Numbered from the stretch's first letter, positions 24,119 to 29,948 are shown. The stretch is DNA of 51,644 nt from Candidatus Aenigmatarchaeota archaeon (GCA_018920345.1 JAHLMN010000011.1:1-51644), one strand, 5' to 3'. The notes: generated by a model not told the origin, from the sequence alone. Numbers and translations are program-made.

Positions 24119-24715
24119 ATGGAAATTGATTTCGGTTATGTTTACGGGATTTTGATTGCAAAAGGTGTATATCATAGCAAAGATCTGATAACCATAGAAA
24201 TGTCTGACAAAAATTTATTAGAAATAGCAAAAAGCAAATTAAAATTACTTGGTAATGTAAGAATTTATAATAAAATTAGAAAATCAAATAAATTATACAA
24301 TACACAAGTCATTTTCTTGAAAATTAAAAATAACATTGAATTGAAACTTGGCAGGCATGAATGGGATGTTCCTTCACGTGCATTCATTTCTAAAGAATTT
24401 AGGATTGGTCTATTGAGAGCCTTGTTTGACTTTTCAGGAACAATAAGGGCTAGACTAAGAAAAAGTGGACAAAAAGAAAGAAGTATTAGGTTAAGCTCTG
24501 TAAACGAAAATATAAAAAAAATAAAAGAATTGCTAAAGATTGAAGGAATAAATTCAATGATTTATTCAAACAAAAAATCGTTTATTTTAGAAATAAATGG
24601 CAAGCATAATTTGCAATTATATTTGGAAAAAATTGGTTTTGAAAATAGCGCTAAAAAAGATTTGTTAGAAAAAATCATAAATCCAGTTTCATTTGAACAC
24701 ATTTTATCTTCATGA
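24119..24715 (+). CDS. Free-standing double-motif LAGLIDADG-fold protein (WhiA/intein-endonuclease-like), catalytic acids degenerate
   Basis: Motif 1 GYVYGILIAKG, motif 2 GLLRALFDFSG, C-terminal LYLEKIGF..KK. Confidence 0.75.
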   Translation: MEIDFGYVYGILIAKGVYHSKDLITIEMSDKNLLEIAKSKLKLLGNVRIYNKIRKSNKLYNTQVIFLKIKNNIELKLGRHEWDVPSRAFISKEFRIGLLRALFDFSGTIRARLRKSGQKERSIRLSSVNENIKKIKELLKIEGINSMIYSNKKSFILEINGKHNLQLYLEKIGFENSAKKDLLEKIINPVSFEHILSS

Positions 24716-24753: not shown

Positions 24754-27468
24754 TTATGAAGATGGTATGAATATTCTTGATCTTTTATCATCTTTGTAAA
24801 AAACTAATTCTCCTCTACAATTATCACACCTTCCGCTTAAAGGAACTCTTTGAAGTATGTTGCCACAAGCTATACAAGCAAAACCATCTATATCTTCCAA
24901 ATAATCTTCAAACTCTTTCTCTTTTTTACCATTATTAAGTATTTCAAATAAACCAGATTGCTTACCTGAACCTAATATTTCTGCCTTGCTTATATTCAAA
25001 ACTTCAAAGACTCTTTCCAAAGGTGGCATTAACTGATTTTCAATATAATAATCAGAATCCAATGGAATTTTATGTTTTAACACATATTCTGGATCTTCTG
25101 TTCTTTTTGAAACTTGACCTGTACCTTTTATTATAACATAACCTATTCTATCTCCAATTCCTGGCGCTGATGAAGGATCGCGTTTTCTCATTTTTTTTAG
25201 CAATTCCACATGGGGTTGTACTCCTTTGTATGTTTTTAAAGATTTAGAAATGCTTTTTGTTATAACTAATTTGTTAATATCCATTTTACCTTGCTTTATA
25301 TCATTTATCTTTTCTTTAACTATATTCAAAGCCTTCTTAGCATCTTTCTCTTTCAATATAATATTCAAAACTTCTTGCAATGTTTCTGAAACTAAATTAC
25401 ACCAATCTCTTCTCACTGTTTCTATACCTTTTGTCACTATAGAATCAGTATAACTGCCGTTGTTTTCTTCAAAACTCCAACCTGCATATCTTTTTTTGCT
25501 TAATATCAATAATGTTTTAAAAACACTTTCTATCTTCATCTTTAAAGCATACTCCATATTACTGTTAATCATGTTTGCCAAATCAGCACCAATCTTAAAT
25601 GCTTCTGACACATCCTCTGTATTAAGCTTTACCATAACAGAATCTGTATCAGCATAAACAACTTTGTAAGGAGTATTTTTTTCTACAATCATCTTGGTTT
25701 TATTTATTGTATCTCTTCCTGTGGCAGTTATTGTATTTGCTATTTCAAGAACATAGAGTCTCGCTCTCATATATCCAGTATACCCATAAAAAGCATTAGC
25801 TACTGTTTTGAAGGCATATTGTTTTGCATAAAGATATTTTTTTACTTGTTCATTGGTTGTATTTTTCATGTCTTTTTTCACTTTATCTCTCATGTTTATC
25901 AAATATTCAACAATTTCAGGTATAATGCCTCTTCTAACAGATGGTTTGACAAATGCTGTACCAAGTGGTGATATAATCTTATCTACATCCTCTTCTGGAT
26001 TAAATAAAAGAGTTGTCGGGCAAATATTCAAAGCAATCATAATACTTGGATACATTGACTTAAAATCAAGATAAACTACTGCTTTATCATGAAAACCTAT
26101 TTCCGGTGATAAAACAAAACCACCTTTTAAACCGGCATTTATTCTTTCCTCATTTCTTTTGTTTAATTCTTGTGTGTCAGGTTTGTTTGGGATAACAAAA
26201 CCTCTTTTGTTAAATTCTCTTAATAGTAGTTGCTCTATTCTAGCTGCTTCGCCACCATCAAGAACATCTTGCAACACCAAACCACTAACTTTGCTTATTT
26301 CAAAAAATTTATCTAACATATTCATCTCTACAAGCATTCTAAAAGGAAGCTCTGCGTCTTTTCTGCTATAGCTTACTAGTTTAGCAAAGTTATCTCCATC
26401 ATCCTTCCAAAACTTGCCTATTTCGCTATGTGCAACATCTACCTTTGTTTCACCCAAAATTACTTGAGAAACATCACCTAAACCAAATCTTTTTAGCCCT
26501 TTATATAATCCAAACTTTGTAGTGGCTTCTTTTATTAAAGAATAAACGTCAACAACAATTCTGCCAGGTATTGTTATATTATAGCCTGTAGAAAGTTTTG
26601 AGCACATCATTTGTTTTTGGCTGCATCTCCCTATTGCTCTAGATATGTTGTTAGCTCTTAATCTAGCTTCTATATAAGGCAGGTCAAAATTAGAAGAGTT
26701 ATAACCAAGAATTATATCTGGATCAAAATTATCTATTATTTTTTTAAATTCCTCCAAAAGTTCTTTTTCATTGTTAAAAGATATAGCATCCTCAAAACCA
26801 TTTTTTGATTTTTTACCTATTAGCACTAAACTATTTTTACCTTTATAAGAAGGATAAAAGAAGAAGCTGATCATTATTATAGGATCTCTTAATGGATCAG
26901 GCATGCCACCTTCTTCTGTATATGTCTCTATGTCTATACTCAAATACTTTAAACTGGCATTCTCATGTTTTTCTATTGGTTTTATTGATTTCAAGGTTAA
27001 TGCTTTGTCTGTTTTTACAACATTTGTCTTTGCGCCTATTCCCTCAACTTCATACCAACCCATTCCGACTATATCTCTATCAGCCATAAACCTATTTCTA
27101 AATAAAATGTCTGCTTCATAAATTTCTTTGACAAATGGTTTGTTTTTTAAATCTTCTCTTATTTCTGGTACAAGACTTGGGTTTTTTATTGTAACCTTCC
27201 AAAGTTTTGTTGGCTCTTTGGAAAAACCTATTGGTAAGAATTTTTCAACTATTTCTATTTTTACAAGCAGTTGTTTGTATTTGTCTTCTAAATATTTTAC
27301 TAGTTGTTCCCCCTTGTCATTTTCAGTATGTACATAAAAATATGGTAAAAAATCTTCGACAAAAACAGTTATTGATTTTTTATCACTGGTTTTACCGAAT
27401 ATTCTTATTGTTGGGTGGTCATTAAGCATTATATAGTCGACATCTAGAACTTGCATTTCTATAGGCAT
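24754..27468 (-). CDS. polB: Family B DNA polymerase (Pol-delta-like) with C-terminal PIP-like motif and Cys4 zinc finger
   Basis: ExoI DIET, ExoII GYNSSNFD, ExoIII YSRKDA, DFKSMYPSI, K..ANAFYGY, YADTDS, KKRYAG, KGIETVRRDW; C-terminal CIAC...CDNC; no intein. Confidence 0.97.
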   Translation of the reverse strand: MPIEMQVLDVDYIMLNDHPTIRIFGKTSDKKSITVFVEDFLPYFYVHTENDKGEQLVKYLEDKYKQLLVKIEIVEKFLPIGFSKEPTKLWKVTIKNPSLVPEIREDLKNKPFVKEIYEADILFRNRFMADRDIVGMGWYEVEGIGAKTNVVKTDKALTLKSIKPIEKHENASLKYLSIDIETYTEEGGMPDPLRDPIIMISFFFYPSYKGKNSLVLIGKKSKNGFEDAISFNNEKELLEEFKKIIDNFDPDIILGYNSSNFDLPYIEARLRANNISRAIGRCSQKQMMCSKLSTGYNITIPGRIVVDVYSLIKEATTKFGLYKGLKRFGLGDVSQVILGETKVDVAHSEIGKFWKDDGDNFAKLVSYSRKDAELPFRMLVEMNMLDKFFEISKVSGLVLQDVLDGGEAARIEQLLLREFNKRGFVIPNKPDTQELNKRNEERINAGLKGGFVLSPEIGFHDKAVVYLDFKSMYPSIMIALNICPTTLLFNPEEDVDKIISPLGTAFVKPSVRRGIIPEIVEYLINMRDKVKKDMKNTTNEQVKKYLYAKQYAFKTVANAFYGYTGYMRARLYVLEIANTITATGRDTINKTKMIVEKNTPYKVVYADTDSVMVKLNTEDVSEAFKIGADLANMINSNMEYALKMKIESVFKTLLILSKKRYAGWSFEENNGSYTDSIVTKGIETVRRDWCNLVSETLQEVLNIILKEKDAKKALNIVKEKINDIKQGKMDINKLVITKSISKSLKTYKGVQPHVELLKKMRKRDPSSAPGIGDRIGYVIIKGTGQVSKRTEDPEYVLKHKIPLDSDYYIENQLMPPLERVFEVLNISKAEILGSGKQSGLFEILNNGKKEKEFEDYLEDIDGFACIACGNILQRVPLSGRCDNCRGELVFYKDDKRSRIFIPSS

Positions 27469-27515
27469 GTTTTAATTAATGAAAATTAACTTAAAAATTG
27501 TTTTTATGTTTTTGT

Positions 27516-28463
27516 CTACAATTCTTTCACTTCTCTTGTGTGAAGATTTACTTCATACTCTTTATCAAAAACAGATATTATTGTTGTTCCTTTGTAATTT
27601 TTAGCTAGAGATGGTTCAATATCTGTTATTATAAAATCAGGTAAATTATCAAGTATAAAATCTTCTGGATTTGAAATTGCATAGTCATTTGTTGTTAAAA
27701 GTAAAAATCTTCTTTTAAGTAATTTTAATAAAGATTCAGAGTAAATTTTTATTCTCATAAAATCAAAAAATTTTTTTGGTAAAATTAGAAAGGTTATATT
27801 TCCATAACTAATATAAGTGGGGTTAGCTCTTCTAGGTGATAGAGGATTTTCTTGATTTAAATTGACCTTTAGAATTATTTCTTCATTTGTTTTTTTTATT
27901 TCTCTATTTAGTGGTATATCAGGATGTAAAATCTTTCTGGTAATAAACTTTTCTCTTTGTCTTTCACAATAAACACCAACCACATCATCTCTTTCAAAAT
28001 CTTCTAATTTTTGTTTCATTATTCCTTCAAAAAAGATTTCTATTTCTCCCGTGGGGTCTTCTAAAACAATAGAAGCATTACCTTTCTCCTTTATTAATCC
28101 TATGGTGGAAAATTCTCTAGTGTTTTCTGTTATCTTATTTATTGATATTCCACTAAAACCAACAGAAGTAAAAATGTCTTTTATTTTTTCATATTTTTTT
28201 AGATAAAAATTTACATAGTCATCTATTCTCAAAGCTTTTTTTTCCAAAACAATTTCTTTTACTACCTGAAAGTTTAATTCTTTTTTTTGATTTTTAGCTA
28301 TTATTTCATTAACTATATCTCTTGTCAAAAAAAATGGCCTTATTTTGAGTTTTTTAATTTCTGAAATAAAAAAATCTGGGTCTTTTCTTATAATAGCTAA
28401 TGCATCATTTGTTAATTGTATTCCCATGTCTAGAAAAGTTTTTATTATTTCTTGGTCATTCAT
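27516..28463 (-). CDS. Inactivated, internally deleted PolD small-subunit (DP1)/B-subunit homolog
   Basis: DP1-like N-terminus (EIIKTFLDMGIQLT.DA), DYVNFY..KYEKI, OB fold (LEDPTG, DDVVGV, HPDIP), then LLKRRF, PDFII, YKGT. Metal-binding His/Asp motifs are absent. TGATG coupling to cdc6. Confidence 0.75.
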   Translation of the reverse strand: MNDQEIIKTFLDMGIQLTNDALAIIRKDPDFFISEIKKLKIRPFFLTRDIVNEIIAKNQKKELNFQVVKEIVLEKKALRIDDYVNFYLKKYEKIKDIFTSVGFSGISINKITENTREFSTIGLIKEKGNASIVLEDPTGEIEIFFEGIMKQKLEDFERDDVVGVYCERQREKFITRKILHPDIPLNREIKKTNEEIILKVNLNQENPLSPRRANPTYISYGNITFLILPKKFFDFMRIKIYSESLLKLLKRRFLLLTTNDYAISNPEDFILDNLPDFIITDIEPSLAKNYKGTTIISVFDKEYEVNLHTREVKEL

Positions 28464-29677
28464 CAAACCACAAGGCTTTCATTCAATATTGCTTTAATTT
28501 TTTGTTTTATTGGCTCTGAAAGATTAAACATTATAACTCTTGTCCTGCCATATCTACCTAAAGAAGTAACTTTGGCGTTTATTATTCCTGCCATATCTAG
28601 CTCAGAAATTAAATCAGAAATTCTTCTTTGCGTTAAAGGATACAAACCTATTTCTTTACATTTTTTCTGATAAATGTCATATACATCCCCTGTTTGTATG
28701 TCATCTCTTTTTGTTTCAGCTAACTCTAATATTGCCCATAAGACGACTTTGGTTTGTTTTGGTAAAACTTTTGTTGACTCTATTATTCTATCATAATCAA
28801 TCTTTTCTTGTGCCATGTCAACGTGTTTTTCTGTTACTTTGTTATCACCCATTCTTTCTGCTATTTCTCCTGCTACTCTTAACAAATCTAAGGCTCTTCT
28901 TGCATCACCATGCTCTTGAGCAGCCAATGCTGCACATTTTGGTATAACTTCTTCTGAAAGTGCTTCTTCAACAAAAGCTAATTGAGCTCTATGTTTCAGT
29001 ATATCGTGTAGTTGAGTGGCATTGTAAGGAATAAACAAAACTTCCTCTTCTCTTAAAGAACTCTTTACTCTTGGATCTAATATTTCTATGAAATGTAAAT
29101 CATTAGTTATTCCTATTATAGATAATTTTGCTTGTTTTAGATCCTGATTTATTCTTGTCAAGTTATAAAGAAACTCGTCGCCCATTTTTTCTACTAGTGC
29201 GTCTATCTCATCTAAAATCAATATTATTATTCTTTTTTCAGAATCCAATGCATTAAAAAAAGTTTGATAAATATAATCTGTTGGCAAGCCAGTTGTTGGT
29301 AAATTATAACCAAGCATCCTGGTTAACTCTGTCACAAGTCTATATTCTGTATCAGAAATTTTTTTCATTTTACAATTAATATAGAGTACTTTAACAGGAA
29401 AGTTTCCTTGGCTAGAAATTTTTTCAAGTTCTTCTGCTATATGTTTTGAAACAAGTGTTTTTCCTGTACCTGTCAAACCATAAATAAAAATATTTGATGG
29501 TCTTGCACCTTTCAAAGAAGGAGCTAATATCGAAGCAATTGTATTAATCTCTTTATTTCTATGATAAATTGTTTCTGGAGTAAATTCTGATGTTAAAACA
29601 TCTCTATTTTTAAATATCTGTGGTGGTTTTGTAATAAATTCTTGAAATATATTTCTTATTGTTTTTTGTGTTTCCAT
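28463..29677 (-). CDS. cdc6: Orc1/Cdc6 replication initiator
   Basis: GLTGTGKT, ILDEID, LDPRVKSSL, GDARRALDLLR, C-terminal wHTH with GRYGRT. Confidence 0.97.
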   Translation of the reverse strand: METQKTIRNIFQEFITKPPQIFKNRDVLTSEFTPETIYHRNKEINTIASILAPSLKGARPSNIFIYGLTGTGKTLVSKHIAEELEKISSQGNFPVKVLYINCKMKKISDTEYRLVTELTRMLGYNLPTTGLPTDYIYQTFFNALDSEKRIIILILDEIDALVEKMGDEFLYNLTRINQDLKQAKLSIIGITNDLHFIEILDPRVKSSLREEEVLFIPYNATQLHDILKHRAQLAFVEEALSEEVIPKCAALAAQEHGDARRALDLLRVAGEIAERMGDNKVTEKHVDMAQEKIDYDRIIESTKVLPKQTKVVLWAILELAETKRDDIQTGDVYDIYQKKCKEIGLYPLTQRRISDLISELDMAGIINAKVTSLGRYGRTRVIMFNLSEPIKQKIKAILNESLVV

Positions 29678-29689
29678 ACAAAATTAATA

Positions 29690-29944
29690 AACTCCTATAG
29701 AAATAAACCTTTTTCTATTGGAAAAAATATAATAACCCAGACCCCTCTATTTCAAGTGGAAATTTTTATATAAACAAAAATAAAAAATATAACAGTATTA
29801 TATTTATAATTATAAATTATTTTAATCTTTTGTTAGATTTTACTACAAAAAAACTATTAAAATAAAAAGTTTAGGTTAATTAAACTAAATTTTTGTTTTT
29901 GTTTTAAAAACAATAAACATTAATTCCAAAAGAAATAAAGGGGT
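29690..29944. other. Chromosomal replication origin (oriC): inverted ORBs flanking an AT-rich DUE
   Basis: ORB ATTTCCACTTGAAATAGAGGGGT on - strand (29741-29763) and AATTCCAAAAGAAATAAAGGGGT on + strand (29922-29944), 18/23 identical. A 158-bp AT-rich spacer lies between them, mini-ORB-like sites sit at about 29691-29726, and the whole lies directly upstream of cdc6. Confidence 0.9.
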
Positions 29945-29948
29945 GACA

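Follow-up and report, generated by a model that had tools for sequence, protein, structure and literature searches.

A candidate origin-proximal replicase cluster in an Aenigmatarchaeote: a family B DNA polymerase with a DP2-like zinc finger encoded beside a truncated DP1 homologue

DP2, the two-barrel catalytic subunit of the archaeal DNA polymerase PolD, is reported to be absent from most Aenigmarchaeota (Aenigmatarchaeota), where an inactive group of its partner DP1, the Aenigma group, co-occurs with Zn-tailed family B polymerases (PolB) of the B6-aenigma1 type; it was proposed that DP2 has been replaced by the Zn-tailed PolB in these organisms (Kazlauskas et al. 2020, PMC7544198). A study published in 2025 in Nature Ecology & Evolution likewise describes Baldrarchaeia and Aenigmatarchaeota that have kept DP1 without DP2, and reports from AlphaFold3 and yeast two-hybrid experiments on Aenigmatarchaeota that DP1 binds the PolB fused to a DP2 C-terminal domain (PolB-DP2CTD) and not other PolBs (PMC12680538). 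Here a locus of this kind is described from Candidatus Aenigmatarchaeota archaeon, in a window of 51,644 nucleotides (nt) that comprises the whole stretch of DNA analysed (GCA_018920345.1, JAHLMN010000011.1:1-51644). In it a putative replication origin (oriC) is followed by an orc1/cdc6 initiator gene (cdc6), a DP1-like gene (dp1*) and polB. This is very probably an origin-proximal replicase cluster in which a PolB tailed with a DP2-derived zinc finger, partnered by a dead DP1, replaces PolD. The system is already known for the phylum, interaction test included, and the locus is one more member of it, which answers a question left open in the initial annotation of this DNA, namely whether such an operon had been described before. 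In the main texts of the two papers no statement was found on the adjacency of dp1* and polB or on their location at oriC in Aenigmatarchaeota: that of PMC7544198 does not use 'operon', 'neighbor', 'adjacent' or 'genomic context', and the sole 'operon' in that of PMC12680538 concerns RFC. Supplementary figures S10, S11, S15 and S16 of the former and the Extended Data of the latter may show gene order or DP1 truncation.

Three further systems are close to the one described here. The oriC-cdc6-DP1-DP2 island of the Thermococcales has the same order of origin, cdc6, DP1 and catalytic subunit; a conserved cdc6-DP1 linkage is found in Thermococcales, Halobacteriales and Methanosarcinales, and it has been proposed that Cdc6 recruits PolD through DP1 (Berthon et al. 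2008, PMC2643942). In PolD itself the Zn-III loop of DP2, which carries a KxRRxP motif, lies in the groove between the OB fold and the phosphodiesterase domain of DP1, and a peptide of 20 Zn-III residues binds DP1 with nanomolar affinity (Raia et al., PMC6355029). The PolB3-DP2CTD of Baldrarchaeia is likewise a PolB fused to a DP2-derived C-terminus with DP1 as its partner and no DP2 in the genome, and is phylogenetically related to the Aenigmatarchaeota PolB according to PMC12680538. The eukaryotic Pol alpha, delta and epsilon also pair a family B subunit, which has its own proofreading domain and a C-terminal zinc module, with an inactivated DP1-homologous B subunit.

In the window cdc6, dp1* and polB are co-oriented on the minus strand (Table 1). 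The TGA stop codon of cdc6 and the ATG of dp1* overlap by one base (TGATG), and the ATG of polB lies 47 nt past the dp1* stop. The initial annotation had described the origin and the three genes in this arrangement, and all four were found where it had placed them. It had further read the PolB as sitting in the DP2 slot beside a dead DP1 in a eukaryote-like architecture, an interpretation that gains support from the homology of the parts, the absence of DP2, the gene linkage and a model of the complex. The genome amounts to 816 kb in 27 contigs and is 95.54% complete by estimate, and the window has a GC content of 27%. The host is an Aenigmatarchaeote, the nearest homologues of both the DP1-like protein and PolB being named in their source as Candidatus Aenigmatarchaeota. 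The stretch was found in 9 sequencing runs (at least half of the sampled words in each) from 3 studies, all labelled hot springs metagenome.

The catalytic subunit would be a proofreading, Pol-delta-like family B polymerase. Its exonuclease domain matches PF03104 over residues 115-315 (E 2.2e-39) and its polymerase domain PF00136 over residues 399-823 (E 1.4e-118), neither match extending past residue 823 of 904. The translation contains DIET, NSSNFDLPY, YSRKDA, DFKSMYPS, KTVANAFYG and YADTDS, which we take to be Exo I-III and motifs A-C. The best matches by sequence in the PDB are human Pol delta (2.2e-115) and yeast Pol delta (1.1e-111), with a Thermococcales PolB at 3e-110. Behind the thumb the tail contains, in this order, a motif resembling a PCNA-interacting protein (PIP) box, a linker, a CxxC-x12-CxxC finger and about 20 further residues. 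The PIP-like motif, QSGLFEIL, is presumably a variant of the PIP consensus, with PCNA binding predicted at most; its conserved form after the thumb is G-x-G-K-Q-x-G-L, and 13 aligned tails all show the G, G, Q and L of GxGxQxxL. The position of this motif ahead of the finger suggests that PolB already had a complete C-terminus when the finger was added after it. An exonuclease and a polymerase domain, a single Cys motif resembling DP2 Zn-III and an Aenigmatarchaeote host without DP2 make the protein a candidate member of B6-aenigma1. The published B6-aenigma1 system with its inactive DP1 is like the locus here in phylum, in the state of DP1, in the absence of DP2 and in the proposed replacement of DP2 by a tailed PolB, and shows no essential difference from it in the accounts given by PMC7544198 and PMC12680538.

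Run on the tail alone, Pfam gave weak matches to unrelated ribbons (best A2L_zn_ribbon, E 0.016), and profiles were used for this reason. A search of the PDB (177,635 sequences) with the single tail returned three DP2 chains as its best matches at a weak E of 0.07. When 13 tails were combined into a profile, DP2 chains again took the first three places among 21 matches (E 7.4e-6 to 9.2e-6, residues 1119-1149 of 1270), the next match after DP2 being an adenylate kinase at E 0.0066. Among genomes of the phylum the profile is matched over its full length by PolB frames of about 900 residues; in seven genomes of one family (f11) in which DP2 is present it matches at positions 44/45 to 75/77 only, and in six of these seven on the contig that bears the DP2 N-domain. 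Aligned by hhalign with six DP2 C-termini from the phylum, the tail profile scores a probability of 97.8% (E 6.8e-13) over 30 columns at 47% identity, the aligned stretch including the R-x-P-L-x-G-x-C core between the cysteines. In the reverse direction a DP2 C-terminal profile, run against six frames of the whole genome, hits one place, nt 24796-24885 (E 4.7e-7). The four cysteines, one proline and two glycines of the finger are invariant in the 13 tails. By these alignments the tail of PolB and Zn-III of DP2 are homologous, and what they share is a single C4 finger of 30 residues.

The resemblance to the DP2 zinc finger that the initial annotation had seen in the tail is borne out by five agreeing searches; the annotation's claim that PolB retains the DP2 finger holds for the 30-residue C4 finger and does not extend to the helical bundle of DP2 or to a two-site C-terminal domain. 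With four cysteines only, the tail lacks the two metal sites (CysA and CysB) and the helical bundle of a eukaryotic-type C-terminal domain. It represents a minimal form because both that domain and the DP2 bundle are absent. In this it differs from the eukaryotic C-terminal domains, in which CysA and CysB sit on a helical bundle (PMC7544198), and from the Baldrarchaeial one, which is described as longer and as resembling those of DP2 and eukaryotes (PMC12680538); here the 30-residue finger alone aligns. Compared with PolD, the catalytic subunit belongs to family B and is not a two-barrel DP2, and no bundle accompanies the finger.

The product of dp1* is, judged by its sequence and predicted fold, a truncated homologue of DP1 and the B subunits, catalytically dead as the initial annotation had held. 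Its start is the ATG at 28463, supported by homologues that begin MNDQE or MDDQE. Residues 1-197 match positions 2-226 of 481 in NF003118, the DP1 model, at E 9.6e-20 and with a score well short of its equivalog cut-off; Pfam recognises an OB fold and no phosphodiesterase. A profile of the dp1* family finds 6 distinct sequences in the PDB, all of them DP1 (best E 2.8e-20). An AlphaFold2 model built from an alignment of 24 relatives has a mean pLDDT of 91.3 and a pTM of 0.75, and Foldseek places seven DP1 chains at the head of its matches to the model (E 5.7e-13 to 2.2e-10; query TM about 0.6), ahead of the Pol epsilon, delta and alpha B subunits (E 1e-9 to 1e-4). The N-terminal domain, the OB fold and the overall fold of the DP1/B-subunit family are present; a complete calcineurin-like phosphodiesterase fold is not. 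Relative to DP1 of T. kodakarensis about 110 residues of the phosphodiesterase domain have no counterpart, and the GHVH motif of that protein aligns to non-histidines. Among the 24 members PF00149 matches none and PF04042 one (E 0.0083), and His occupies at most 12 of 24 rows in any column of the alignment; the protein encoded in the window has one His in its last 134 residues. The metal-binding Asp, His and Asn motifs of the nuclease centre of an active PolD small subunit are not found in dp1*. The loss of about 110 phosphodiesterase residues and of all metal-binding histidines means that dp1* could not act as a nuclease. Thus dp1* differs from DP1 of PolD in its truncated phosphodiesterase domain and lacks the nuclease centre; the eukaryotic B subunits share its fold and are much larger than its 315 residues.

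A canonical PolD holoenzyme is not encoded in the 95.54%-complete genome, in which no DP2 gene was found. The DP2 N-domain PF03833 has no match there, the same search being positive in 3 of 14 genomes taken as a control, and the DP2 C-terminal profile finds the PolB tail as its sole match. There is one DP1-like locus. A candidate second dp1, an OB-fold stretch of 47 residues in a frame of 114 residues (E 2.9e-4), was rejected.

The same division is seen across 151 genomes of the phylum. Matches to dp1* occur in 145 of them, to the tail profile in 146 and to DP2 in 8, the last being all seven genomes of f11, which have no tailed PolB, and the genome G090. Canonical PolD and tailed PolB hardly ever co-occur in this sample. 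In G090 DP2 and a DP1 match lie on a short contig (C64), dp1* on C11 and a fragment of tailed PolB on C30, which reflects either contamination of the bin or a true co-existence of PolD with the dp1*/PolB system. Among the matches listed, polB is co-oriented directly downstream of dp1* in 94 of the 134 genomes that have dp1* and a full-length tail, upstream of it in 3 and on a different contig in 10; in a separate set of relatives' loci the N-terminal half of PolB stands right behind dp1* in 27 of 29. With cdc6 included, no other gene order is as frequent in the sample as cdc6-dp1*-polB. Two checks proposed in the initial annotation, a search for separate intact DP1 and DP2 genes and a comparison of synteny in related metagenome-assembled genomes (MAGs), have come out in favour of its reading, neither gene being found and dp1* and polB being linked in the relatives.

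A third such check, modelling PolB together with the dp1* product, also favours the pairing. The dp1* product and an 88-residue PolB tail, both entered as alignments of our own, were modelled alongside three controls. The ipSAE interface score of the complex is 0.78 (0.77, 0.78 and 0.79 in the single runs) and that of the best of the 3 controls 0.00; the runs share at least 80% of contacts, and the pLDDT of the partner is 70. In the 88-residue piece the predicted contacts fall at 58-63 (RVPLSG), 71-74 (ELVF) and 82-88 (the last residues, IFIPSS), and in dp1* at residues 76-92, at 124-140 and 159-160 in the OB fold and at 238 and 261 in the phosphodiesterase remnant. The model supports binding of the PolB tail to dp1*. 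By this mechanism dp1* would retain its N-terminal helical domain and OB fold, having lost some 110 phosphodiesterase residues with all metal-binding histidines, and a single 30-residue C4 finger, descended from DP2 Zn-III, would follow the thumb and the PIP-like motif of PolB. Contact would be made where the OB fold meets the phosphodiesterase remnant, by the finger loop (RVPLSG; the DP2 equivalent is RRxPL) and by the six C-terminal residues of PolB. This predicted mode of docking resembles that of the Zn-III loop at the OB/phosphodiesterase interface of DP1 in PolD (PMC6355029), and would equally be that of the second zinc module of eukaryotic polymerases on their B subunits. The resulting two-subunit PolB holoenzyme would replace PolD, with dp1* as an adaptor and not an enzyme.

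The intergenic stretch upstream of cdc6 (29678-29948) fits an archaeal origin built of origin recognition boxes (ORB) and a DNA unwinding element. Two 21-nt copies of TTCCAnnnGAAAnAnAGGGGT, in inverted orientation, flank 162 AT-rich bases, so that inverted ORB-like elements surround an AT-rich stretch beside cdc6 as in an archaeal oriC. When about 280 nt of upstream flank was searched at each of the relatives' loci, a looser ORB pattern was present 20-120 nt upstream of cdc6 at 6 of 13 loci that bear cdc6 and at 0 of 16 that do not. Cumulative GC skew was set aside as evidence because it follows the strand of the genes, switching several times along the window together with it. The adjoining cdc6 scores above the cut-off of 501 bits of the ORC1-type NCBIfam model and contains the Cdc6 lid and winged-helix Pfam domains.

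Several points weigh against reading the locus as a PolB-based replicase cluster. The margin by which Pol delta leads over the Thermococcales PolB in the PDB (2.2e-115 against 3e-110) is small and bears on membership of B6. Outside the 30-residue finger hhalign aligned nothing between the tails and the DP2 C-termini, in particular no helical bundle, and zinc binding by the finger is deduced from its four invariant cysteines. The complex model may pass by its likeness to solved PolD and eukaryotic complexes of C-terminal domain and B subunit, and the ipSAE mark, which 58 of 80 solved complexes and 2 of 110 mismatched pairs attain, is calibrated only roughly because own alignments were used. The TTCCAnnnGAAAnAnAGGGGT pattern has 2 matches in the window where 0.06 are expected, and 0 of 100 shuffles gave 2, a statistic that is partly circular because the pattern was derived from the same two copies; activity of the origin is suggested by motifs alone. 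Co-transcription of dp1* and polB is presumed at most; the 47-nt spacer before polB is AT-rich, and among the listed runs that contain the stretch there is no RNA run. In 27 of the 134 listed genomes, all of families f13, f14, f19 and f10, dp1* and polB are convergent and 1.5-5.1 kb apart. The 151 genomes are all of one class, related and not independent, and the linkage coordinates were entered by hand from the listed matches, 58, 43 and 22 further matches being unlisted.

The alternative that survives best, although we consider it improbable, is that the dead DP1 chiefly serves Cdc6 or the helicase at the origin, in initiation or as a tether of the Cdc45-MCM-GINS (CMG) complex, with the adjacency of polB secondary and PolB binding weak or absent. 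Orthologous cdc6, taken at a threshold of E <= 1e-100, occurs in 106 genomes among the matches listed. In 95 of these it immediately precedes dp1* on the same strand, and in 88 the gap from one matched stretch to the other does not exceed 300 nt; the exceptions to the 95 are 7 on another contig (6 of them f11), 1 downstream on the opposite strand and 3 without a dp1* row. The adjacency of cdc6 and dp1* is hence at least as conserved as that of dp1* and a co-oriented polB, the N-terminal domain of dp1* is strongly conserved, and recruitment of PolD by Cdc6 through DP1 has already been proposed (PMC2643942). However, families f2 and f3 of the same order (e.g. loci L015-L025) keep dp1*-polB although orthologous cdc6 was not found at the locus and only a cdc6 paralogue of 30-37% identity occurs elsewhere in the genome, the complex model with its controls favours binding of the tail to dp1*, and by the yeast two-hybrid results reported for the same phylum DP1 binds the tailed PolB only (PMC12680538). 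The two roles are also not mutually exclusive.

It is less probable still, and very unlikely, that the tail arose independently as a generic zinc ribbon, its likeness to Zn-III being convergent. Small C4 ribbons are common, just 30 residues align, Pfam drew unrelated ribbons at weak scores, and the Aenigmatarchaeota C-terminal domain is described as shorter, degenerate and different in predicted structure (PMC12680538). Against this, DP2 chains rank as the three best of all PDB sequences by single tail and by profile alike, the identity of 47% includes the R-x-P-L-x-G-x-C core, the sole match of the DP2 profile in the genome is this tail, and the finger sits on a protein encoded beside a homologue of DP2's own partner. 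That dp1* is a decaying relic devoid of function, as its lost catalytic centre with some 110 residues and the naming of its relatives might suggest, is strongly disfavoured and the least credible reading of all, given its presence in 145 of 151 genomes, its open frames (about 290-450 residues without stops among the matches listed), 26 invariant columns in 24 sequences with identity down to 33%, a pLDDT of 91 and 400 representative clusters of the family in the sequence library at E <= 0.001.

Table 1. Features of the oriC-cdc6-dp1*-polB locus and its flank (positions in the window)
Feature	Position	Strand	Remarks
polB, 904 residues; exonuclease and polymerase domains, C-terminal extension of about 80 residues	24754..27468	-	PF03104, PF00136
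C-terminal IFIPSS, PolB residues 899-904	24757..24774	-	complex model; predicted strand against dp1* 78-81
C4 zinc finger homologous to DP2 Zn-III by alignment, PolB residues 863-890, Cys 865/868/881/884 (FACIACGNILQRVPLSGRCDNCRGELVF)	24799..24882	-	profile searches
PIP-box-like motif QSGLFEIL, PolB residues 837-844	24937..24960	-	between thumb and zinc finger
dp1*, dead DP1/B-subunit homologue by sequence and predicted fold, 315 residues	27516..28463	-	N-terminal helical domain, OB fold, phosphodiesterase remnant of about 134 residues
orc1/cdc6 initiator gene, 404 residues	28463..29677	-	NF001625 522.8 bits, PF22703, PF09079
ORB-like element, cdc6-proximal arm (TTCCACTTGAAATAGAGGGGT)	29741..29761	-	64 nt upstream of cdc6 ATG
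AT-rich spacer, putative unwinding element	29762..29923	.	162 nt between ORB arms
ORB-like element, distal arm (TTCCAAAAGAAATAAAGGGGT)	29924..29944	+	inverted copy of proximal arm, 81% complementary over 21 nt
Intact calcineurin-like metallophosphoesterase, 227 residues	29949-30632	-	abuts distal ORB, co-oriented with cdc6

Within the same family the metallophosphoesterase gene on the far side of the origin keeps its position in all 9 genomes with both coordinates listed, and in four genomes from other families of the same order such a gene lies about 1 kb upstream of dp1*. Its product was considered as a split-off nuclease half of DP1 and rejected, its best PDB matches being aq_1956 and phosphodiesterases of the MJ0936 type, with no DP1 among them. 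On the other side of the cluster a free-standing open reading frame of 198 residues (24119-24715, plus strand) is of LAGLIDADG type (PF14528, E 1.5e-7); it weakly resembles the endonuclease portions of proteins with inteins, and it runs towards polB, its end lying 38 nt from the stop codon of that gene. Several relatives have PolB frames of intein size (1317-1730 residues), one of which, P0047 (1388 residues), contains Pfam families of inteins and LAGLIDADG endonucleases. The genome holds a second PolB of 776 residues (L002 1435-3765, minus strand, on G000:C3) that has no Cys tail and ends in QDSLHSWFKK, which looks like a C-terminal PIP box. A second and distant Cdc6/Orc1 paralogue, 35% identical to the Cdc6 of the window, is encoded at G000:C11:16615-17403 (plus strand). 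In the public record the relatives P0002, P0011, P0013 and P0014 of the dead DP1 bear the GenBank label 'hypothetical protein'; P0014 and the tailed PolB P0042 have consecutive accession numbers within one MAG, and the relative pair P0012 and P0040 is filed under a bacterial candidate division.

As to how the cluster arose, it is possible, if rather doubtful, that the body of DP2 was replaced on the spot by the polB core in an ancestral oriC-cdc6-DP1-DP2 operon, the Zn-III codons alone surviving as a docking handle, and that DP1 was afterwards reduced to 315 residues, the smallest B subunit known, serving purely as an adaptor that connects PolB to the origin or helicase machinery. In-place replacement is favoured, though not demonstrated here, by the shared gene order, cdc6-dp1*-polB being the commonest in the sample and mirroring the Thermococcales island. 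Against it, f11, the sole DP2-bearing family, has cdc6, DP1 and DP2 on different contigs, and the fuller DP2 C-terminal domain reported for the related Baldrarchaeial PolB3 fits the acquisition of a ready-made fusion (PMC12680538). Were in-place replacement true, the cluster would be a gene-order record of the transition from PolD to PolB with a B subunit, one that eukaryotes also underwent.

The present analysis adds to the published account the confirmation on one more genome, a reciprocal test of homology between the tail and DP2 from within the phylum and a survey of gene order in 151 genomes; public annotation still labels the dead DP1 as a hypothetical protein. The pairing bears on the origin of the eukaryotic replicases, a point that earlier publications on this phylum have made and partly tested. 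A proofreading PolB joined to an inactivated DP1 through a DP2-derived finger would be an archaeal counterpart of the eukaryotic architecture of catalytic and B subunits.

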